Virus record (IMG/VR): IMGVR_UViG_3300042997_001027 | Coordinates: 1 to 42,197 of that record | DNA from: a virus | Taxonomy: Duplodnaviria > Caudoviricetes | Direction: 5' to 3' (one strand) | DNA length: 42,197 bases | Shown here: one piece after another, positions 2,248 to 37,856 of the stretch | Numbering within the stretch: the first letter of the stretch is position 1 | Layout of the letters: every line of letters begins with the position of its first letter | Made by a program: the position numbers and the translations under genes | The notes under the pieces: model-generated | Seen by the model: only the letters and a program-made list of their open reading frames with translations | The model's database searches: none | What the model was told of the DNA's origin: nothing

Positions 2248-2949
2248 TTATTCAGCTCCCTTGAGGTAGAGGGCCGGCATCTCTGCCTTGGCCTTTTCAA
2301 ACTTCTCGTCGTTGATAGGTCGCACCTCGATGGTCGCAGCGAGCGACTCGGCGTTGCGAGCTACGCGCATAGCCACGCTGTTGCCCGCCTTGAGAACCAA
2401 GGTAGCGTTCACCCAATTGACTGCCTCATTAGAGGACCAGCGACCACGACCGTTGCGTCGGGTAGAGGAACGCCAATAGTCCTTCGTAGGAATAAGCGGA
2501 GTGCTGAAGCCGGGAGAGCAGGGGCAGGAGCATCCCGCCTTGCGTGCCCATCGGACACCCTTTGCCTTCTCCACATCAGCCATCGTGTAGCCAGGAGGGA
2601 GCTTTGCCATACCATTGGCGAGGACCTGCTTCATTACGGAAGCGAGGTGCTTGCGGTATTCAACAAAGCGTTCGTCGCCGTCCCACGACTCGCTGCCGCG
2701 GGTCATAAGGTTTTCTAGGACATTGAACTTTTCGTCGGCTTCCTTGCGGATGTCCAGGGCGATGATAAGGTTGCTGTGCCTGTCGGTCAGCGAGGACATT
2801 GAGAGGTCAGCGAGCTCGCACTTGGCGTTCGAGGCCGGCGTGATGTCCTTGGACACGGCGAGCTTGAAGTAGCGTCCGCTGTCACCGTCTTGGGTTGGCG
2901 TGAGCGTTGGTAGGCCGTTCACGAGGTCGAGTTCTGGTTGGGATGTCAT
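2248..2949 (-). CDS. hypothetical phage protein with KAGCSCPCSPGF motif
   Basis: 233 aa ORF tiling with its neighbours; Cys cluster. Confidence 0.7.
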   Translation of the reverse strand: MTSQPELDLVNGLPTLTPTQDGDSGRYFKLAVSKDITPASNAKCELADLSMSSLTDRHSNLIIALDIRKEADEKFNVLENLMTRGSESWDGDERFVEYRKHLASVMKQVLANGMAKLPPGYTMADVEKAKGVRWARKAGCSCPCSPGFSTPLIPTKDYWRSSTRRNGRGRWSSNEAVNWVNATLVLKAGNSVAMRVARNAESLAATIEVRPINDEKFEKAKAEMPALYLKGAE

Positions 2950-2953
2950 AGAA

Positions 2954-3205
2954 TTAGAGGTAGTAGCCGGGGGTAGAGGAACCCCAACAGTTGTCCGCCT
3001 TGATGCGGCTGATTTCTTCGCAGGCAGATGCCATCAGCTTGTAGTTTTCCTGCAAGGCGAGGCGGAGGCCGGCAACCATCGAGACGGCTTCGGGTGATAA
3101 GCCACTAGCGTCGAGCGTGATGATAGCACGCTTGAGGCGAGTTTCCGTTTCGATGCGGGCTGCGAGGTCGGCGCGGAGAGCGAGGATTTCTTCTTGAGGA
3201 GTCAT
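2954..3205 (-). CDS. hypothetical coiled-coil protein
   Basis: 83 aa ORF, TTGACA at 3243-3248. Confidence 0.6.
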   Translation of the reverse strand: MTPQEEILALRADLAARIETETRLKRAIITLDASGLSPEAVSMVAGLRLALQENYKLMASACEEISRIKADNCWGSSTPGYYL

Positions 3206-3244
3206 AGTGAGAGGGTGTCGTTGTGGAAGCGTTTGCGTAGAATG

Positions 3245-3628
3245 TCAAGCGACAACCTTGGGGGCTGCACGATTGATGGCGAACATCGGGCCGACACGCA
3301 TCAGAGTCTTCACCTTGGAGGCGAACTCTGCCGTGGTCATCGAGATGTCCTTGGAGTCACCGGTGCGGAGGTTGGTGCCGAGCAGGATGGCGTTACCCAT
3401 CAGCGGGCTGTCGTAGCCTTCGTAAGTGAAGCCGACGGTGGTGTCGTTAATCAGACCCTCGTCGTCAACGTAGAGCGTGTCGCCCTTGTCATTGACCTGG
3501 ACGGTCGTGAAGTAGTTGCAGCCGATGAGGCGGCTGATGTCGGAGAAGTCTTTGATGACAACTTCCGTGATGGTGTTCTCCTTGGCGTTGAGCAGGAGGG
3601 CGCAGTCGGCGCGGGTGTTCTTAGGCAT
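3245..3628 (-). CDS. DUF3846-like phage protein
   Basis: LIGC...LYVDDEGL...GNAILLG motifs; start moved to MPKNT. Confidence 0.65.
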   Translation of the reverse strand: MPKNTRADCALLLNAKENTITEVVIKDFSDISRLIGCNYFTTVQVNDKGDTLYVDDEGLINDTTVGFTYEGYDSPLMGNAILLGTNLRTGDSKDISMTTAEFASKVKTLMRVGPMFAINRAAPKVVA

Positions 3629-4047: not shown

Positions 4048-4320
4048 ATGCCCCGCAAACTATATTCCGTCGTCAGCGTCCTCCGGGCTGACACCTCTGA
4101 CCTCACCAAGCTCTCTGCCCAGCAGATTGTGAAGCGACTGCCTTACACGCTCGATGACGAAGCCGTCTACGGCGTGGGGGGCGCCTACCAGATGTATGCC
4201 GATATGTATGGCGAACAGGCGAGCGAGATGCGTGCCAATGAGATGAACCCCGGCACCTTCAAGCAGTGGCTCACCCGCCAGGTCAGCCGAGTCCGCTACC
4301 ACGCGGCTCGTCGGGCGTAA
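4048..4320 (+). CDS. hypothetical protein
   Basis: Start MPRKL after TTGACT-N17-CAACCT and an A/C-rich leader. Confidence 0.6.
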   Translation: MPRKLYSVVSVLRADTSDLTKLSAQQIVKRLPYTLDDEAVYGVGGAYQMYADMYGEQASEMRANEMNPGTFKQWLTRQVSRVRYHAARRA

Positions 4321-8230: not shown

Positions 8231-9030
8231 TCAGCGGGTTTATCGTCCGGCTGGTTCTCGCAAACGAGCGTTGGCTTCTTTCTGAAGACCACACGTGCCA
8301 CTCCAATCGCCCCAAGTAGGGCAAAAACTCCAACTATGTAAGGGAAGTAAGGCGTCCCCCAGATGAACGGGAAGGAGGAGACGGCGAAACCAGCCGCAAG
8401 GAGCTGGAGGCCCATGACCTTCGGGCCGAAGATGAAGCACGCCACCCCAGCAAGGCAAATAAGTCCCCCCAGGTATAGGAACTTGTCCTTCCGCGCTTCT
8501 TCAGCTTCCAATACACGCATGGCTTTTTCTTGCGCCAACGCCTGCTCCCTTTCCAGGAGCTTCGCATTGAACTCCGCTTGTTTCTTCGCCTTCTCCGCTT
8601 CGTATTTAGCGTCAGCGTCGGACAGCTTTTTCTTGAGCGCCGTCGCTTCTTCCTGCTCCTTCTTATAGGCATCTGCCACCGGCATACCTCCCAAGACCGC
8701 CTCCACACGCTTCTTGGTTAACGCCCAGTCGATTGGGTCTGCATGTCCGGTCAAAGTCTTGGCAAGCTGAAGCTCGCTTCGGAGAACCAGGTTCGTCTTC
8801 TCGTCCTGCTCTCTTTGGGACAGGATGTAAGAGATGCCCACGGAGGCTGCCACCTTTGACAGGCGGTCCTGCGTAGCCTTGTCCAAGTCCTTCTCTGCGC
8901 CTGCAAGACCAGAGGTCGTTGCGGGTTCGGGAAGGGGCGGCAGTTCCTGCTTGGAGTCGAAGAGCGAGCATCCTGTTAGGATTGTCAGGGCTGTGAGCAA
9001 CCCTGTGAATAGTGTGAACGGTTTGCCCAT
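8227..9030 (-). CDS. lipoprotein with coiled coil and C-terminal TM helices (spanin-like)
   Basis: Signal peptide with lipobox LTGC, long helical region, about three C-terminal hydrophobic segments, next to the holin. Confidence 0.6.
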   Translation of the reverse strand: MGKPFTLFTGLLTALTILTGCSLFDSKQELPPLPEPATTSGLAGAEKDLDKATQDRLSKVAASVGISYILSQREQDEKTNLVLRSELQLAKTLTGHADPIDWALTKKRVEAVLGGMPVADAYKKEQEEATALKKKLSDADAKYEAEKAKKQAEFNAKLLEREQALAQEKAMRVLEAEEARKDKFLYLGGLICLAGVACFIFGPKVMGLQLLAAGFAVSSFPFIWGTPYFPYIVGVFALLGAIGVARVVFRKKPTLVCENQPDDKPAE

Positions 9031-31084: not shown

Positions 31085-32086
31085 TCAACCAATGTAGCTC
31101 CCGCCCTCGAACGACATAGGCATCGCAGGCTGGGAATACATCTGGGGTAAAGTGGTTCGCTGGGCGTGGCGTCGAGTGGACTTAATGTCCTCAACAAGGG
31201 CTTCAAAGGAGTCTACGACCCCGGTGGTCAGACCACGCTGTGCCGCCTTGTCTCCGTAGAACGACTGCCCTTGTAGGTCTGCTAGTTGGGCGTAGAGGCG
31301 AACAGCCTGGACGTCCCGGATGAACCGAGCGTGCAGCTCGTCAACTTCGTCTTGAAGGGAATTAATTTGGTCAGGGGAGAGCGAGGTGCCCTCCACGCCG
31401 GCCGCCTTATACTTGCCGGATTTGATAACCACGACCTCCTTGCCCTCCTTCTCGAACTTCTTACGCTCGTCGGTCATCGTGATGTAGACGCCGCAAGCAC
31501 CTATGGAGGCGCTAGAGGTCGCTACAAAGCGTTTGCACTGCGAGGCTATCCAGAAGGCAGCCGAACCGCAATCAGAGTCTGTAAAGGAAATGGTTGGCTT
31601 ATCGAAGCCGCGGATTTGCTTGGCTAGCTCTTCAAGACCGGTCGTAGAACCGCCACCCGAGTCTACCCGTAGGACCACCTCAAACACCGTGTCGTCTTTA
31701 TCCCAGGCCTTGAGGGTGTCCGAGATGACGTCGATGTCTGCGCAACCAAGCATGGCCTCTAGAGGGCTAAGGCACTTGCCGATGACCCCCTTCACCGGAA
31801 TAATCCCGATGCCGTCACGGATGTATGGGCGGGATGCCGTAGCAATTCCCGAAGCCATAGCTTGTAGGTCCATATCCTCATCGTCCGCTTGAGGGACGAA
31901 ACGCTTCGCCTTCGGACCGACCTCTTGCTTCTCTGCCTTGGGCATCATGTATGCCGAGAGCTGGTAAGCAATTTCCGGGTTGGACAGAATAGTGTCCGCG
32001 CCCTTCAGAAACGCCTGAACCTTGAGTGGGTCAATAAGGAGGGGTCGTCCAGCCTTCAGGGCGTAAGTTAGGTCGCTTCTAATCAT
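31085..32086 (-). CDS. S49-family (SppA / lambda gpC-like) head maturation protease
   Basis: VDSGGG, CGSAAFWIAS, IGACGV, IKSGKYK motifs. Confidence 0.9.
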   Translation of the reverse strand: MIRSDLTYALKAGRPLLIDPLKVQAFLKGADTILSNPEIAYQLSAYMMPKAEKQEVGPKAKRFVPQADDEDMDLQAMASGIATASRPYIRDGIGIIPVKGVIGKCLSPLEAMLGCADIDVISDTLKAWDKDDTVFEVVLRVDSGGGSTTGLEELAKQIRGFDKPTISFTDSDCGSAAFWIASQCKRFVATSSASIGACGVYITMTDERKKFEKEGKEVVVIKSGKYKAAGVEGTSLSPDQINSLQDEVDELHARFIRDVQAVRLYAQLADLQGQSFYGDKAAQRGLTTGVVDSFEALVEDIKSTRRHAQRTTLPQMYSQPAMPMSFEGGSYIG

Positions 32087-33813
32087 CGAGAGAATGGCTG
32101 TTCCCGATTACGGGAAAGGCCGGGATTTTGTTTTGGCAGGGTGTCAACAGAGGTTTCCATCTGCGACGCCGGCTCGGCGGCGGGAGTTCTCTGCGGAGGG
32201 GAGAGCTGTGGTTCGCTGTTCGTGAGCGCGTCGCCAGGCATTTGGTCCGCAGGCTGACCCATGATTTGGTCAATAGGAACAATCTGCGGCTGACCATCTG
32301 GACCTGGCATAACCACACCCAACGCTCCTTCAGGGATGGTGTTCGGAGCAGGCGCAGCACCACCCGCACCGCCCGCGCCGCCAGAAGGCGACTTGCGCCA
32401 AAGCTTGTCCTCGGGGACACCGGTTTCCTTCGACACTCTCTGAATGTAGGCAAAGTCTCTTGCCGACTTGCGGATGGTTTTCTCGAAACCATAGCCACGC
32501 GCCCCAAAGTCATCAGACGGCGGGATGCGTCCCATGTCCAGGTCAGCTCGTTCATTCGCACCTTCCCGGCCGGCATCCACAGTCACCGACTTGCAACACA
32601 CCCATTCTGTCTTCCACCAATTACGTGCATTAGGTATATTCTTGCGGTCAATCATAAGCCCGCACCAAAATTGGAAGTAGTCCTGGAGGAAACGATTGAT
32701 GAGCACCGTCTGGCGATGCGAGAAGAAGCGTCCTGCCTTCGCAACTACGAGGCGAACGGCACTTCCGCCTGCCCGAGTCGGGTCGGCCACGAACTCGTAA
32801 GGTAGGCCGCCCATAATGGAGTCGCGGCGCAAATGGTCGATGAAGCCGGCGAAAGCTGCTGAAGGACGTGCTGAAGCGTAAGAGACAAGGGACTCATTGT
32901 TTTGGAGAACAGCGGTCACACCACCAAGGATGCGGTTAAGTGAGTCTGGGTCGGTATTAGCGGTAGCGGAATTGCCCTCGCCCAAGGGCTGACCAAGGCC
33001 CAAGTCCCCAGAGTCCATCCGGGTGTCCTCGACCTTTAGGATGCGGCTTGTGCGGGAGTTGTCCTTAACTGCGACCTTCTCCATAGCCAGGAGGTCCATC
33101 TCGTCGCGCATGTGGTTGATAGCATGCTGATGAGGAGGGAACGCTCGGCTCTGCGAGGCGTATTCAACATCGTAGATGTGCATCATCGATGCCGCCTTAA
33201 TAGGTTCGTATTTGCCGTCCCCTTGCTTGACGTAGTAGAAGGTTGGTCTGCCCAGCTTGTCGAAACGGATGCCGTCAAAGATGTCCGGCAGGGACATGCC
33301 ATCTGGCGGTGTCTCCACTCGGTGAGCTTCAATGATTTGGAACTTAGGCTGCCCCTTCTTATCCTTGCACTTGATGACAAAGATTTCGCCGTCTCGGTCC
33401 AGGGCCTCACAGATAATGAACAAGCTCTCCACCATCGAGAAGCGGCCAGACACCTCCGGGCGGATGCACTCCTGCTCCCACTCGGCTTCCACCAAGTTTT
33501 GCCAATCGTAATCGCCACCCAAGCACTGAAGACCGATGCCCTCCCCAATAGAGTAGATGGCCGTGTCCTTAATCATCTGTTTGTATAGGCCGTTGTTCTT
33601 TTCTAGCCAGCGGGAAAGGCGAACCATCTCACGACGAGTAGCCCCCGTCATCTCCATCCGGAAGTCCGTCGGCTGCGGCGCGTCAATGCGCGTGCGGTGG
33701 ACGGAGTAGCGGGTAGACTCAAACGCCCCCTGATAAGCCTTTGGCTTCAGGAGGTTAGACAGAGACATGCGGACCCGGTCAACGAGTCCTGGCTTCTTCG
33801 GTTCGGGAGGCAT
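32083..33813 (-). CDS. portal protein, lambda family
   Basis: SRWLEKNN, DRDGEIF, QIIEAHRV, DGIRFDKLGRP..Y motifs. Confidence 0.9.
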   Translation of the reverse strand: MPPEPKKPGLVDRVRMSLSNLLKPKAYQGAFESTRYSVHRTRIDAPQPTDFRMEMTGATRREMVRLSRWLEKNNGLYKQMIKDTAIYSIGEGIGLQCLGGDYDWQNLVEAEWEQECIRPEVSGRFSMVESLFIICEALDRDGEIFVIKCKDKKGQPKFQIIEAHRVETPPDGMSLPDIFDGIRFDKLGRPTFYYVKQGDGKYEPIKAASMMHIYDVEYASQSRAFPPHQHAINHMRDEMDLLAMEKVAVKDNSRTSRILKVEDTRMDSGDLGLGQPLGEGNSATANTDPDSLNRILGGVTAVLQNNESLVSYASARPSAAFAGFIDHLRRDSIMGGLPYEFVADPTRAGGSAVRLVVAKAGRFFSHRQTVLINRFLQDYFQFWCGLMIDRKNIPNARNWWKTEWVCCKSVTVDAGREGANERADLDMGRIPPSDDFGARGYGFEKTIRKSARDFAYIQRVSKETGVPEDKLWRKSPSGGAGGAGGAAPAPNTIPEGALGVVMPGPDGQPQIVPIDQIMGQPADQMPGDALTNSEPQLSPPQRTPAAEPASQMETSVDTLPKQNPGLSRNREQPFSR

Positions 33814-34058
33814 CAGCGGTCAACCAAGCGGTTGTAATTCGTGTAGAGGCCCCTGACTCTGCCATCGAGCTTCTGGAGAGCGTAGTTAGCCTCCTGGAGC
33901 ATCTGTTGCGGTGGTAGGGCAAAGGACTTGCTGGCGTTCGTGGCCCCATCTCCGTAACTCATGATGGTCTTGCCCTCCAGTATAAGCTGGACGGCCTTGT
34001 CACGGATTGCCTCGACTGTTTCACGAGGAAGTCCGACAAATAGTCCGTTGGCTGGCAT
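33813..34058 (-). CDS. gpW-like head completion protein
   Basis: 81 aa between terL and portal, TGATG-coupled to the portal. Confidence 0.6.
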   Translation of the reverse strand: MPANGLFVGLPRETVEAIRDKAVQLILEGKTIMSYGDGATNASKSFALPPQQMLQEANYALQKLDGRVRGLYTNYNRLVDR

Positions 34059-34080
34059 CGTGCTTTTGGCACGCTGTCAA
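34059..34080 (-). promoter_or_regulatory. late-gene motif (type example)
   Basis: TTGACA-gcgt-GCCA-aaagcacg-ATG; related copies precede about ten late genes. Confidence 0.65.
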
Positions 34081-34111
34081 CGGGCTATCGGTAATTCGTT
34101 CACAAAGGGAA

Positions 34112-34215
34112 TGGTTCGCTGTATGACCCCTTTAACCCCATTGTAGGACGACCCGTGGGTCTTCCGCACATTGATGCCGCCTCTCTCGATGCGCGGTCTT
34201 TCATCAGCCGAACCA
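34112..34215 (-). ncRNA. structured RNA unit M
   Basis: TGGTTCG(G)CTGATGA pairs with TCAT(A)CAGCGAACCA; inner CCGCGCAT/ATGTGCGG and GACC/GGTC stems. Confidence 0.55.
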
Positions 34216-34223
34216 AAAGTAAA

Positions 34224-34446
34224 GGAGCTCCAGGACTTTTGTAGGCGGGAACCTTTCGGTCTATACCCCGACCACGCTGTCTGTCCTGGCATCTTGGCTT
34301 GCTTGTTTCCAAAGAGGTTGCCCTCCGGTGTGGAACCGACGCCCCGCATCTCCCCAGGTTTGGACCCCAGTAATTGCTTGAGCGACGTGTTAGTAGCAAG
34401 TCGCAGCACCACCCTGCTTTCGCAGGACCGCCGGTTTCCCGACGGC
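34224..34446 (-). ncRNA. structured RNA unit L
   Basis: Five GNRA-capped stems, CCAGGAC/GTCCTGG helix, possible pseudoknot. Confidence 0.6.
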
Positions 34447-34508
34447 AAAGTTTTAAAGAACGAAGATGTTGTCTTCTAGTGTTAGGTATTTGTCAACACT
34501 TTTTTTAG

Positions 34509-34623
34509 AGTCGCCGAGGAGGAGTTGAACCTCCGTCCCCGAGTCTTTTCAGGAGACCTGGGTCTTGCGAACCAAGCCACCGCCAATCAAGGCGGCTTCC
34601 AAGGACAGCACCACGCTACGGCT
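34509..34623 (-). ncRNA. T-arm-containing RNA unit K
   Basis: GGAGG-TTCAACT-CCTCC; GTCCTTG/CGGGGAC helix enclosing three hairpins. Confidence 0.6.
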
Positions 34624-34633
34624 GTAAAGGGGT

Positions 34634-34795
34634 TGGGGATGAAGGGATTTGAACCCTTACTGCTGTCGGTTGCACTCCGACTGCGTAGCCAAACGACCTT
34701 CTTGGGAGCAACCCCAAGGATTATCGTCTCTGCGTTGCCAGATTAGACAATTGCTTGTCCCACTTTGATTGGCTTCAAAATGACGCTACATCCCC
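34634..34795 (-). ncRNA. enlarged tRNA-like RNA unit J (162 nt)
   Basis: GGGGATG/CATCCCC acceptor, GCGT/ACGC D-stem, AAGGG-TTCAAAT-CCCTT T-arm. Confidence 0.75.
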
Positions 34796-34806
34796 GTAAA
34801 GTATTC

Positions 34807-35071
34807 GGCAACCGACAGCACTCCCTTGTCTCCCCCGCGGCTTATTGCGGTTTCTATCCAGGAGCTCCGTGTCAGAGTTGTGGACCTTTCGGCTACCCAC
34901 GCCTGTTGCCCGCCAACTTCCAGACGTCCCACGAAAAAGGTGGGCAATCCCTGGTGCAAGAATACTCCCTGTGTAGACAGGGCTTGTCTGGTTCGCTTGC
35001 GGCACTTTTCAGATGCCGACGGTTGATAGGCCGTCCCTCCTTGCGGAGCTGTGCGAGCAGTTTGCGTGGCG
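34807..35071 (-). ncRNA. large structured RNA unit I
   Basis: Two abutting domains closed by CGCCA/TGGCG and GGCAAC/GTTGCC, with many internal stems. Confidence 0.6.
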
Positions 35072-35097
35072 TTGAAATGTCAAGAGAACGGAAAAGT

Positions 35098-35231
35098 TGG
35101 TGGATACGGCGGGGGTCGAACCCGCAACTTTCACTTGGCTTTCCTTCGTGGGGACTGCCAATAGCCCACTCTTTTCGTGTCACGATAACACTACTTCCGA
35201 GTGGATAACTCGACCGATGAGTATCGTATCC
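35098..35231 (-). ncRNA. enlarged tRNA-like RNA unit H (134 nt, encoded CCA)
   Basis: GGATACG/CGTATCC+ACCA, ACTC/GAGT D-stem, GCGGG-TTCGACC-CCCGC T-arm. Confidence 0.75.
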
Positions 35232-35239
35232 ATAAGTTC

Positions 35240-35331
35240 ATCAAGTTTGCTTACGGGCCTGATAGTCTCTCCCCCTTTCGGGGGTTGTAGGCGCGCACAT
35301 GCGCCTCGTTGTTCGAGCTTTCGCTCTACAA
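35240..35331 (-). ncRNA. structured RNA unit G
   Basis: TTGTAG/CTACAA, GAGC-GAAA-GCTC, CCCCC-GAAA-GGGGG, ATCAGG/CTTGAT. Confidence 0.5.
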
Positions 35332-35338
35332 AATCAGA

Positions 35339-35412
35339 TGACCCAGGATGGACTCGAACCATCGACCTCACCCATTTTCAGGGTGCGCTCTAACCAACTG
35401 AGCTACCGGGTC
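35339..35412 (-). tRNA. tRNA with non-canonical anticodon loop (UGAAAAU; Phe-like or undetermined)
   Basis: Full cloverleaf GACCCGG-TA-GCTCAGTTGGTTAGAGC-G-CACCC-TGAAAAT-GGGTG-AGGTC-GATGGTTCGAGTCCATC-CTGGGTC-A; no encoded CCA. Confidence 0.85.
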
Positions 35413-35417
35413 GTAAG

Positions 35418-35478
35418 GACTCTTCTGACTAGCGACGCTCTTATCGCAGAGCGGGCGTTGGTCGGTGCCTGAAGAGTC
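35418..35478 (-). ncRNA. long hairpin unit E
   Basis: GACTCTTC/GAAGAGTC base and CGCTCT/AGAGCG apex. Confidence 0.5.
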
Positions 35479-35505
35479 TAACTTGAATGTCAAAAGAACT
35501 GAAAG

Positions 35506-35580
35506 TGGAGTCGGCGGGTCCGTTTTTACGGCCCTCCCACACACGGTGGGATTGCGCAGCTCGGTCATTCGAGCGCCGAC
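35506..35580 (-). ncRNA. 75-nt cloverleaf ending in TCCA (tRNA mimic, unit D)
   Basis: GTCGGCG/CGCCGAC 7-bp stem plus TCCA, three internal hairpins, no TTC loop. Confidence 0.65.
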
Positions 35581-35585
35581 AAAAG

Positions 35586-35662
35586 TGAAACCGGGTAGCA
35601 AATCCACGCCTCTTTCTGGACGCTTATGCGGATGCTTGCGGGGCTTCTCAACCCCTCCCGGC
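35586..35662 (-). ncRNA. structured RNA unit C
   Basis: GCCGGG/CCCGGT closing stem; GGGGTT-GAGA-AGCCCC. Confidence 0.5.
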
Positions 35663-35673
35663 ACTAAAGGTAT

Positions 35674-35746
35674 TGGCGGTCCATTCATCAAGAGGCATAC
35701 GGTGCGTGCTTTGAGGTGAAGGGGTTTGTTCCAACCCCACCCGCCA
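35674..35746 (-). ncRNA. structured RNA unit B
   Basis: TGGCGG/CCGCCA closing stem; GGGGTT-GGAACA-AACCCC. Confidence 0.5.
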
Positions 35747-35750
35747 GATG

Positions 35751-35863
35751 TGGAGAGTCGCCTTTAGTCTTTTCGCTCACGTCCAGGCAGTTGTTGCTGT
35801 TTGGCTGTGGTTCACTGCCCCGGCGTGTGGCCGAGGACTTACGGTAGATTTATCGGGCGACTC
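35751..35863 (-). ncRNA. structured RNA unit A ending in TCCA
   Basis: GAGTCGCC/GGCGACTC 8-bp stem plus TCCA; inner GTCC/GGAC, TCGGC/GCCGG and GGCAGT/ACTGCC. Confidence 0.6.
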
Positions 35864-35960
35864 AAAGAACAGCAGGGTAGTTAACCCTGACTCGAACATA
35901 CAATCAGATGCCCAAGCGTTTGACAAGATAAATCTGCAAATAAACGAAAATAGTTTTTAC
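35862..35960 (-). promoter_or_regulatory. putative promoter and boxB/boxA-like leader of the RNA operon
   Basis: AT-rich tract, TTGTCA, TGTATGTT, hairpin CAGGGT/ACCCTG, then TGTTCTTTGA. Confidence 0.55.
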
Positions 35961-36014
35961 CCCCCATTTTCATTGGGGTTTTCGGGGTATTCCGAACTAC
36001 TGTGCGTCCAGGAC

Positions 36015-37856
36015 CTATGAGGCAGGAGGGGCCTCGGAAGGCTGCTCCACAGGCTTTTCCTCTGGGGGAGGGGGCGGTGGAGGAGCCAGGAAGCCAAACG
36101 CCAACGCCGGCACGAACTGCATTACCTCGCAGTCCCACAAGTGATTAGCTCGCTTACCAATTCGCTTCCACTCTGGCTTGCCTGCCAGGTTCTTCGTGCG
36201 CACCTCCGACTCCATCTGGTCAATGTAGTCCTGGCCGCTGTCCGCAGATGTCGTGTGCTTACCAACCTTACGCATACGAGAGAGCTGGTCCTTCAACGCC
36301 AAGTTGGAGAAGTGATGGACTCGAACAGGCCCTGTCCCAACATTCACCATACGCGCGGGAGCGTAGACTTTGCCAACCGGCTTACGACCCTTTGGTGTCT
36401 CCACCATCCAAGTAAACTCGTAGCGAGCATCCCCTCGTAGGGCCGTCCACTTATTGATACCACACTGACGGATGACGTCGTCGAACTGGTCACCACAGTC
36501 AACATATGTCAAAGCTGGATGAACCTCGTAAGTCTTCCCCATCGAGATTACGTCTTCCCAAGTCTGCACATACCTCCACTTTATTAGGCGGCTATCCCCG
36601 CCCTCTGCCCATCCACGGACAAGGCAAAAGAAGCCCTCGCGCTGCACGTCCACGGACATGAACCGAGCTCGTATCTGCTTCTCCCGCTTGTGGTCGGTGT
36701 GTATCTTGCGCGAACCAGGGTCGATGCGGGCTTCCTTGTCCCACTCTTCACCCATCTTGTAGTCCCCAATCGTTTGTAGGCTTCCGAAATCATCAGGGGC
36801 ATCCGACCAAAAGTGCGCCAACTGCTTCTGTTTGAAAATCTGCATCGCTTTTGCGTCCCCATTGACGTCTAGCATAAGCTTCGCCCGGACATACATCTCT
36901 GCCATAGAGCCCCAGGAACGGGCCGCCAAGCCACTCCAAGTGTAGCCGTGGTTCGCAGGGTCGGCCGAGGGGGATGTAATGGCGTAGAAGCCCGTAGCGT
37001 TGAAGTCATCACGGTTGGAGCGGGTATCCGCAAACTGCTTCTTGCACCCCTCGCACTCATACTTGGTTTCTCGCTTGATGAGGCCGTAGTCAAAGTCCCC
37101 GTCTCGTTGCATGGCGTCGGGTATCTTGACTTGGTCCCAATTCCAAGGCTGCCTATGACCGCAGGAAGGACAGGCGAACGACCACACCCTCTGGTCCGTA
37201 GTCTTCCAAACGCCCTCCGTATCGTCGCCCACAAAGCTACCCTGCGACATGAAGATGCGCTTACCCAACCAACCGAATGAGGTCACACGCGCGGAAGCTT
37301 CCGCAAGATGCCCCGCCGGCCAGAGCCAGGTCTCATCACCCACCAACCATCGAATAGACCGCCGTTGTAGGTTCTTCTCATTGAACGCCCCCAAACACCA
37401 AAAGGTCATGTCCTCCGTCTGCACCGTCCCCGACTTCTTCCCTGTTTCGTCCTTCTGAAGCTTGGCGATAACCGGTGGCACGTTCTCCCAAAGCACCCGC
37501 AAGCGGGACTGCATCCAGTCCGCAGCGTTAGAGTCCTGGTCGTTCAGGTAGAGCGTAGGCGCCGGCTGCCGCGCAATAATAAAGCACGACAGCATCTCCG
37601 CCATCAAGCTCTTGCCCGACTGAATGGGCGCGATGGTCACGACAAGCCTGACCTCCGGGTCCGCACACGCTCGGAGCGGCTCCGCCAACCAAGGCGTCTC
37701 CTGCACCCGAAACCCCGAAGGCATCGGCGAGAAAGGTATCTGCCTGATGTTCTCCTCCAACCAAGTAACGATGTCCCCACCCTCATCCGGGCGGAACACC
37801 CTCCTGATGCGGGACTCCAACTGGTCGGCTATAGCCTCCTTTTGAGCAGGGGTCAT
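36015..37856 (-). CDS. terL: terminase large subunit, GpA family
   Basis: APIQSGKS Walker A, LVGDE Walker B, CPSC/CEGC, SVDVQ and NHLWDCE nuclease motifs. Confidence 0.93.
   Translation of the reverse strand: MTPAQKEAIADQLESRIRRVFRPDEGGDIVTWLEENIRQIPFSPMPSGFRVQETPWLAEPLRACADPEVRLVVTIAPIQSGKSLMAEMLSCFIIARQPAPTLYLNDQDSNAADWMQSRLRVLWENVPPVIAKLQKDETGKKSGTVQTEDMTFWCLGAFNEKNLQRRSIRWLVGDETWLWPAGHLAEASARVTSFGWLGKRIFMSQGSFVGDDTEGVWKTTDQRVWSFACPSCGHRQPWNWDQVKIPDAMQRDGDFDYGLIKRETKYECEGCKKQFADTRSNRDDFNATGFYAITSPSADPANHGYTWSGLAARSWGSMAEMYVRAKLMLDVNGDAKAMQIFKQKQLAHFWSDAPDDFGSLQTIGDYKMGEEWDKEARIDPGSRKIHTDHKREKQIRARFMSVDVQREGFFCLVRGWAEGGDSRLIKWRYVQTWEDVISMGKTYEVHPALTYVDCGDQFDDVIRQCGINKWTALRGDARYEFTWMVETPKGRKPVGKVYAPARMVNVGTGPVRVHHFSNLALKDQLSRMRKVGKHTTSADSGQDYIDQMESEVRTKNLAGKPEWKRIGKRANHLWDCEVMQFVPALAFGFLAPPPPPPPEEKPVEQPSEAPPAS

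Follow-up and report, generated by a model that had tools for sequence, protein, structure and literature searches.

A conserved tRNA-sized RNA fold in reshuffled RNA arrays between the terminase and portal genes of freshwater phages

An RNA Array Between Terminase and Portal

The window, by which we mean the whole stretch of DNA analyzed (42,197 nt), corresponds to a virus record of 42 kb that is 48% complete and whose minus strand encodes lambda-type terminase, portal, protease, and capsid proteins. All 24 sequencing runs listed as containing its sequence came from lakes or other freshwater, and the best bit scores among the matches listed were to the terminase and portal of Verrucomicrobia phage P8625, at only 22–27% identity. 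Between the terminase gene and a small gene ahead of the portal gene lies an array of RNA cassettes, which we lettered in the direction of the array strand. The features of the locus are as follows.

36015..37856, minus strand: terminase large subunit, upstream boundary
34059..36014, minus strand: RNA array of ~13 cassettes, 1.95 kb, from the terminase to the small pre-portal gene
35863..35926, minus strand: promoter-like TTGTCA (35926-35921) and first boxA-like motif (35870-35863)
35751..35863, minus strand: cassette A, 8-bp terminal stem and UCCA (z −2.73)
35674..35747, minus strand: cassette B (array comparison, motif count, folding)
35590..35662, minus strand: cassette C, upstream neighbor of D (z −3.35)
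35506..35580, minus strand: cassette D, 75-nt four-way-junction RNA (fold, 14 distinct homologs, covariation)
35418..35478, minus strand: cassette E, downstream neighbor of D (z −3.08)
35339..35412, minus strand: gene called as tRNA-Phe (anticodon AAA according to ARAGORN), CCA not encoded (ARAGORN, Rfam)
35242..35329, minus strand: cassette G (array comparison, motif count)
35098..35231, minus strand: cassette H, a tRNA shell with a 7-bp stem, D-like arm, T arm, and ACCA around a large insert
34809..35074, minus strand: cassette I, 266 nt, covered by RNA-library contigs
34631..34795, minus strand: cassette J, a tRNA shell with a T arm and large inserts
34511..34624, minus strand: cassette K, a T-arm RNA partly called as tRNA-Ser by ARAGORN
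34455..34496, minus strand: second promoter-like TTGACA (34496-34491) and boxA-like motif (34461-34455)
34113..34446, minus strand: cassettes L and M (array comparison, motif count, folding)
32083..34058, minus strand: 81-aa small gene and portal gene, downstream boundary

An earlier note on this DNA had described cassette D as a single element. The element proved real, but the array around it had been missed: cassette D is one cassette of a shuffled RNA array. The array holds one tRNA and three T-arm RNAs, two of which are shells; the others belong to no known family. In relatives, the cassettes recur in other orders and combinations (for example, L157 2740-5844, L096 1690-4661, and L169 8800-11900). 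The terminase–portal slot spans 1.4–6.2 kb in the 22 loci with both ends present and a terminase identity of at least 68%, whereas it measures 5–197 nt in 50 of 53 loci at or below 57% identity. Across the window and its relatives, array cassettes other than the true tRNAs matched no Rfam family, and the reshuffled arrays likely hold dozens of undescribed RNA families.

In the tRNA-Phe gene, ARAGORN reads AAA because the anticodon loop as framed has no U at position 33; a one-base shift would give the anticodon GAA. In L004, L005, and others, a shell occupies the position of this tRNA. The shells of the window (H and J) and of relatives (also L005 ~8650-8860 and L157 ~4098-4317) keep an acceptor stem and D-like and T arms, with a folded insert of 60–150 nt replacing the anticodon arm.

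We counted short motifs over 16 arrays (38,679 nt), which are related and so not independent. On the array strand, there were 57 U-rich spacers (opposite strand 8, shuffles 5.2), 52 copies of the motif GUUCUUY (opposite strand 9, shuffles 5.0), and 374 GNRA motifs (opposite strand 173). GUUCUUY often lies 35–38 nt behind a TTGACA-type hexamer, and we tentatively read it, like its GUUCUUU form, as resembling an rRNA-type antitermination boxA. Its enrichment is a property of the 16 arrays; in the window alone, the boxA-like counts were not significant (7 vs. 9.2 expected and 10 vs. 6.4 expected). The promoter-like sites (34496-34455 and those of relatives) combine a good TTGACA with an unusual second hexamer that, judged by eye, often ends in AAC, and such hexamers could help to identify the host. 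A sigma-70 consensus scan returned no site at the TTGTCA of 35863..35926.

Fold and Anatomy of Cassette D

The earlier note had drawn a 75-nt cloverleaf with a 7-bp acceptor stem and a TCCA end, giving no strand. The 75-mer it described is the reverse complement of 35506-35580, which places cassette D on the minus strand, and it folds as drawn: the cloverleaf is both the minimum-energy and the centroid structure (−37.6 kcal/mol, 74% of the ensemble), with a stability z of −3.97 and none of 200 shuffles as stable. The parts are as follows.

35581..35586, minus strand: U-rich leader, likely a processing spacer (homolog rows, array motif count)
35574..35580, minus strand: P1 5′ strand, acceptor-like, G1 and G4 invariant (covariation, homolog alignment)
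35560..35573, minus strand: P2 hairpin, 4 bp in the window copy, with the 6-nt loop ANUGAC, invariant except N
35552..35559, minus strand: 8-nt junction linker CUGYGMAA, six positions invariant (homolog alignment)
35535..35551, minus strand: 6-bp P3 hairpin whose two basal C-G pairs are invariant (covariation, homolog alignment)
35517..35534, minus strand: P4 hairpin, 6 steps, 6–8-nt loop ending in AA, invariant G-C closing pair, no UUC
35510..35516, minus strand: P1 3′ strand (fold, covariation)
35506..35509, minus strand: discriminator U and CCA (homolog alignment)
35492..35505, minus strand: CUUU spacer followed by the boxA-like motif GUUCUUU (motif counts)

P4, the last hairpin stem, carries a G-A mismatch at its third pair, and P2 has 5 bp in 10 of the 14 homologs. 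The leader reads CUUUAU or AUUUAU in the 14 representative rows and ACUUUU in the window. The 8-nt linker separates the first and second arms instead of lying at the variable-loop position of a tRNA, and the P1/P2, P3/P4, and P4/P1 joins hold no unpaired bases. Because these three joins are closed, the junction differs from that of a tRNA even when the loops are set aside.

Several other features were sought and rejected. Inspection by eye found no pairing between the P2 and P4 loops. A T-loop-like motif in P4 is not universal, its first U being absent in one homolog. The linker resembles the consensus of an anticodon loop, a weak lead; its flanks are unable to pair, which rules it out as a hairpin loop. 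Resemblances of cassette D to the SRP Alu domain and the hammerhead had no Rfam support. Open reading frames overlap the element on both strands, yet its homologs are 74, 75, 76, 78, 79, or 93 nt long; therefore no reading frame is kept, and we rejected a coding reading. The element is absent from the output of the terminator scan, which speaks against a terminator.

Homologs, Covariation, and Exchange Between Phages

Matches were collected by searching from terminase and portal genes, by five pattern scans, and with a covariance model; they total 29 in 45 sources, and 14 are distinct in core and tail. The homologs belong to a single clade of uncultured freshwater phages and lie between terminase and portal, one copy each in 12 of 27 whole records. 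A model built from them scores the window copy at 73.5 bits, a figure high by construction since that copy is itself inside the model, and the next best place in the window at 8.6 bits. Pattern hits were true in 16 of 19, 10 of 11, and 6 of 6 viral cases and in 17 of 50 metagenome cases, false hits being dropped after inspection; 15 hits among 185,579 bacterial genomes were all due to chance. A further 68 terminase loci gave only two copies, both already known. By blastn, cassette D had no match in 50,697 records of named phages, which the region as a whole matched through its tRNA only. In the parts of the literature consulted, we found no description of this RNA or of the array; an unnamed candidate may sit among the 10,006 viral RNAs of PMC10690425. 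Cassette D is a conserved and apparently undescribed RNA fold, compact in form, that escapes both tRNA finders and Rfam.

The homologs bear out the fold, for which covariation had been proposed as a check. Compensatory changes occur in all four stems, and 16 of the 24 pairs change on both sides, which argues for ongoing selection rather than decay. Over 16 distinct rows, 96.2% of 373 cells are paired, compared with 69.3% in shuffles and 33–46% in slid controls, counts that lean toward structure because the rows are related and were aligned by fitting them to the model. RNAalifold on the same alignment returned 23 pairs of the same fold. The homologs show eight G-U cells and no A-C cells, from which we assigned cassette D to the array (minus) strand.

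Invariant columns number 26. Three lie in the acceptor end (G1, G4, and U73). The core accounts for the other 23, which are found in the P2 loop and the pair that closes it, in the linker, in P3 (one G of the loop and both basal C-G pairs), at the first position of P4, and in the pair closing P4 together with the AA of its loop.

Across phages, cassette D has about nine different upstream and eight different downstream neighbors (counted by eye), and these neighbors also occur without it. Its subtypes are scattered over a terminase tree of 27 loci, and a 94%-identical relative that is 97% complete has no copy. The single copy, varying neighbors, and scattered subtypes indicate that cassette D works as a unit; together with its absence from so close a relative, they mark it as autonomous, exchangeable, and accessory.

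Relation to tRNAs and Known Stable RNAs

We then compared cassette D with tRNA. As the earlier note had predicted, tRNA finders miss it: ARAGORN made no call at default settings and, with -ps, called none of the 14 homologs. Rfam searches at gathering thresholds and at E ≤ 10 placed no tRNA and no fitting family on the element; the tRNA model (RF00005) matched neither strand, and no riboswitch, ribozyme, SRP, or tmRNA covariance model gave a fitting match at E ≤ 10. Cassette D shares with canonical tRNA (RF00005, including tRNA-Sec) its size, four helices, a 7-bp terminal stem, G1, and a discriminator followed by CCA; the stem has 7 bp in 13 of 14 homologs, and UCCA follows in 10 of 14, including the window copy. 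The invariant features that the earlier note had reported missing are missing from the homologs too. In place of the 5-bp T stem and 7-nt UUCRANY loop, P4 has 6 steps and a 6–8-nt loop without UUC (14/14). There is no D-loop GG and no U8/A9 connector, the corresponding loop being ANUGAC with P1 and P2 directly joined, and the P3 loop of 4, 5, or 19 nt leaves no 7-nt anticodon loop with U33. The 8-nt linker behind the first arm is likewise unlike tRNA. With three defining features failing, cassette D is no tRNA.

One way to account for the partial likeness is a decayed or inverted tRNA gene, or an RNA from the opposite strand, where the arm order is more tRNA-like. At very relaxed thresholds, ARAGORN does call the opposite strand in all 14 homologs; that strand puts the 8-nt linker at the variable-loop position and, in 8 of 14, shows UGG in the D-position loop. 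The G-U cells nevertheless favor the array strand, the motifs of the array all point the same way, and the loop C(UGCG)G, presumably of the UNCG type, stands on the array strand in 6 of 14. Rfam found no tRNA on either strand, and the compensatory changes speak of selection at work, not of decay. We therefore consider this explanation very unlikely, although an ancient origin of cassette D by inversion is conceivable.

A closer parallel is found among the stable RNAs of large phages. T4 rnaC and rnaD are the small stable RNAs known as species 1 and 2, and T5 RNA1, RNA2, and RNA3 are annotated as tRNA-like stable RNAs whose functions are unknown (record annotation; excerpts of PMC3014915 and PMC9697503). 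What these RNAs share with cassette D is a fold that does not decode, a place among phage tRNAs, a terminal stem, and a tRNA-like end; cassette D is a non-decoding folded RNA gene within a phage operon that contains a tRNA. When the T4 and T5 regions were searched with the cassette D model and filters off, the best hits were ordinary tRNAs, the highest being a tRNA-Asp at 18.2 bits. Moreover, T4 rnaC and T5 RNA1 and RNA2 keep a T arm, whereas cassette D has none; in the clade studied here, non-tRNA cassettes far outnumber tRNAs, and they lie in a small lambda-type phage, between terminase and portal. Cassette D is thus of the same kind as T4 rnaC/rnaD and T5 RNA1–3, but it is not homologous to them.

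Other tRNA-like or tRNA-associated RNAs fit less well. YrlA, as portrayed in an excerpt of PMC4201824, has D and T arms around a closed acceptor stem, a GNCGAA motif, and Ro60 beside it; cassette D, unlike YrlA and other Y RNAs, has no T arm, GNCGAA motif, Rfam match, or adjacent Ro60, and no Ro60/TROVE gene was present in 13 records, five of them at least 90% complete. GOLLD and ROOL are, in the partial accounts consulted, ornate noncoding RNAs near phage tRNAs, as here; they are single large RNAs, whereas the units here are small and reshuffled, and neither had an Rfam match in the window or in 20 loci.

Acceptor-Like End and Conserved Core

The earlier note took the terminal stem for an acceptor-end mimic and held that a CCA not conserved in homologs would refute it. 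The mimicry holds in part. G1 and U73 are present in 14 of 14 homologs, and P1 and P4 together make 13 steps in 13 of 14, with free variation in P3. The tail reads UCCA in 10, UCCU in 2, and UCCC in 1 and is lost in 1, so that CC is kept in 13 of 14 and CCA in 10 of 14, with CCA absent from four. The less favorable side is that identity varies, that CCA also occurs at spacers, and that the core holds most of the invariants. Among T-arm cassettes of the same arrays, NCCA is found at 8 of 41 distinct ends, a loose pattern in which the 41 include a few false or shifted rows. Among the triplets that precede U-rich spacers in the arrays, CCA ranks second (30 of 304), and at spacers it was observed 39 times against 5.4 expected. 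The CCA of cassette D therefore has an exact register and is commoner than in the T-arm RNAs (10/14 vs. 8/41), yet may in part be a generic spacer signal (30/304).

The acceptor stem falls into five sequence types with no single amino-acid identity. The bacterial glycine acceptor set, given as U73, G1-C72, C2-G71, and G3-C70 in Table 1 of PMC9976931, is complete in 7 of the 14 homologs, and the abstract of PMC13219725 describes how phage Mu Mom uses Gly-tRNA-Gly to modify DNA. A glycine-charged cassette D could accordingly serve as a nonribosomal amino-acid donor or as a synthetase sponge. The window copy and six others lack the set, however, three of the seven copies with it have no encoded CCA, and the anticodon determinants for glycine are absent. 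Among 146 proteins from parts of three relatives, we found no Mom- or GNAT-like Pfam match, a weak argument since most of these proteins have no family. We hold this explanation to be quite unlikely.

Enzymes that read the acceptor end offer a different connection. According to passages of PMC11559606, FaRel2 depends on G1-C72, C2-G71, G4-C69, and purine5-pyrimidine68 and can modify an acceptor minihelix by itself or even the pentamer CACCA, and the mark that toxSAS leave on tRNA ends is taken off by a phage hydrolase. No homolog has the full FaRel2 set, and the window copy has three of the four determinants; other toxSAS read other stems.

These observations bear on a reading in which cassette D is a decoy for a host defense enzyme that binds or attacks tRNA. 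Genuine tRNAs and T-arm shells elsewhere in these arrays provide a fitting context for it; the missing T-loop, the four homologs without CCA, and the FaRel2 result tell against it. So does the distribution of invariants, 23 of 26 of which lie in the core, away from the acceptor end. The same distribution, in loops, linker, and junction-side pairs while the acceptor sequence varies, suggests the closest rival, namely that the conserved core is the working surface, a protein- or small-molecule-binding four-way junction, and that the stem and CCA are a tRNA-style handle for release and stability. A terminal stem followed by a YCA-CUUU-type tail also closes many cassettes that have no T arm, and the arrays use tRNA shells as carriers of large inserts. 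On the other hand, a mere handle would not account well for the exact N-CCA register in the tail, for a U73 that never changes, or for the fixed 13 steps of P1 and P4, and no Rfam riboswitch or ribozyme model matched at E ≤ 10. We regard this rival as possible, if doubtful.

Presence in RNA Libraries

Six RNA runs contained part of the region, and five of these were compared as assembled contigs. A contig of run X21 covers 35420-35578 without differences, and one of run X20 covers 35546-35581 and continues into the upstream cassette of a sister variant. Such contigs show presence in RNA libraries and are blind to ends and strand; since the same runs also cover terminase and portal, DNA or transcription of the whole phage may lie behind them.

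Contigs that span both boundaries of cassette D, together with its position between spacers, would also suit a role in cis, as punctuation for processing or folding that lets host nucleases separate neighboring cassettes. Against such a role, each array has a single copy although it holds a dozen or more cassettes, the neighbors are unrelated between phages and are also found without cassette D, and the invariant loop bases exceed what a cut site needs. A purely cis-acting element is, in our view, unlikely.

In cassette I, contig depth in the RNA runs was 11–41 compared with 2–6 elsewhere, and both ends of one contig (34807-35078) fall no more than 4 nt from the predicted boundaries. This hints at a discrete RNA of 270 nt; beyond such a hint, contig depths and uncovered stretches were given no weight.

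A Tentative Decoy Model

We tentatively favor the decoy reading, at a probability of roughly 0.35: cassette D would be a swappable RNA cassette, processed to a stable 75-nt RNA with a CCA end, that acts during infection as a decoy for a host defense enzyme binding or attacking tRNA. The array would be transcribed from the promoter-like sites and boxA-like motifs as long, probably antiterminated RNAs. That long transcripts are cut at the U-rich spacers and matured like tRNA is the likelier part of the model, and we think it probable. The host's tRNA-processing enzymes would release cassette D by cutting in the spacers, cleaving at G1 in the manner of RNase P, and trimming the 3′ end, and CCA repair could complete the UCCU and UCCC variants. 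Both RNase P and the CCA enzyme normally use the T-loop, which is missing here. The invariant core (P2 loop, linker, P3 base, and P4 loop) would hold a compact shape presenting a helix of 12–13 steps that ends in U-CCA. Having neither T-loop nor anticodon, cassette D would stay outside translation, and enzymes that read only acceptor ends, such as the toxSAS/CapRel pyrophosphokinases, would be spent on it.

For decades, no function has been known for the stable RNAs encoded in the tRNA regions of T4 and T5. A small phage clade turns out to have an expanded, reshuffled version of them: its arrays comprise dozens of cassette types on which structural selection is visible, and they sit where sister phages have RtcB, the tRNA repair ligase. 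Cassette D is the simplest member to make and test, and because natural variants exist with and without CCA and with five acceptor types, it lends itself to a direct test of whether phages answer tRNA-attacking defenses with RNA decoys instead of spare tRNAs or proteins. The array as a whole merits more attention than cassette D alone.

Genes for RNA Repair and Possible Alarmone Hydrolysis

Finally, we looked at the genes that accompany the arrays in relatives.

L158 3360-4580, L159 5400-6620, L160 6953-8173, and L174 2502-3767, minus strand: RtcB RNA ligase in the terminase–portal slot
L232 2654-3868, minus strand: RtcB RNA ligase
L235 3478-4032, plus strand: alarmone hydrolase-like protein P0122
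L232 6624-7136, minus strand: alarmone hydrolase-like protein P0121

Of the 27 records, 7 encode RtcB, and two of these 7 also carry cassette D; the ligase occupies the terminase–portal slot in the four sister loci scanned (Pfam E ~1e-80). An alarmone-hydrolase-like gene is found in 3 of 27 records, all of them carriers, and two of the copies are identical. Its product, a small HD protein, has a (p)ppApp hydrolase as its best solved match (E 4e-15) and may therefore act on nucleotides rather than on tRNA. The phage hydrolase that takes off the toxSAS mark (PMC11559606) is of a similar type. Such enzymes degrade alarmones as well. One of three complete carriers has neither RtcB nor the hydrolase, and neither was found in the window record, which is 48% complete. 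The gene context points to a conflict over tRNA, without tying that conflict to cassette D.

A wider proposal extends the decoy reading to the whole slot, as a shuffled library of RNA decoys against tRNA-targeting immunity. Cassette D would then be the first natural acceptor-end sponge without a T-loop, taking the pyrophosphate or other mark that CapRel-type toxins would otherwise place on the CCA ends of tRNAs; its acceptor stems would follow toxin specificity, and the phage alarmone hydrolase would recycle it. Taken as a whole, we consider this proposal rather unlikely.

In two RtcB-bearing sisters, the array is reduced to two RNA cassettes with the same promoter and boxA-like motif (L158 ~1970-2190, L159 ~2040-2250), and the RtcB gene of L158 lies near a P-loop kinase gene. 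P0122 and P0121 begin with a MARG...S leader, as do several paralogous pre-portal proteins of unknown function, four of them in L014; in that relative, a pentapeptide-repeat protein with a MARG leader (2623-3504, plus strand) stands directly behind the RNA array. The leader may be a capsid-loading signal for injected proteins. A gene with a PAPS-reductase domain occurs in three relatives (L232 7828-8910, minus strand; L235 1736-2818, plus strand; L239 16038-17201, minus strand), in two of them near a ParB-like gene, and DNA methylases occur in G001; these genes possibly serve DNA modification.
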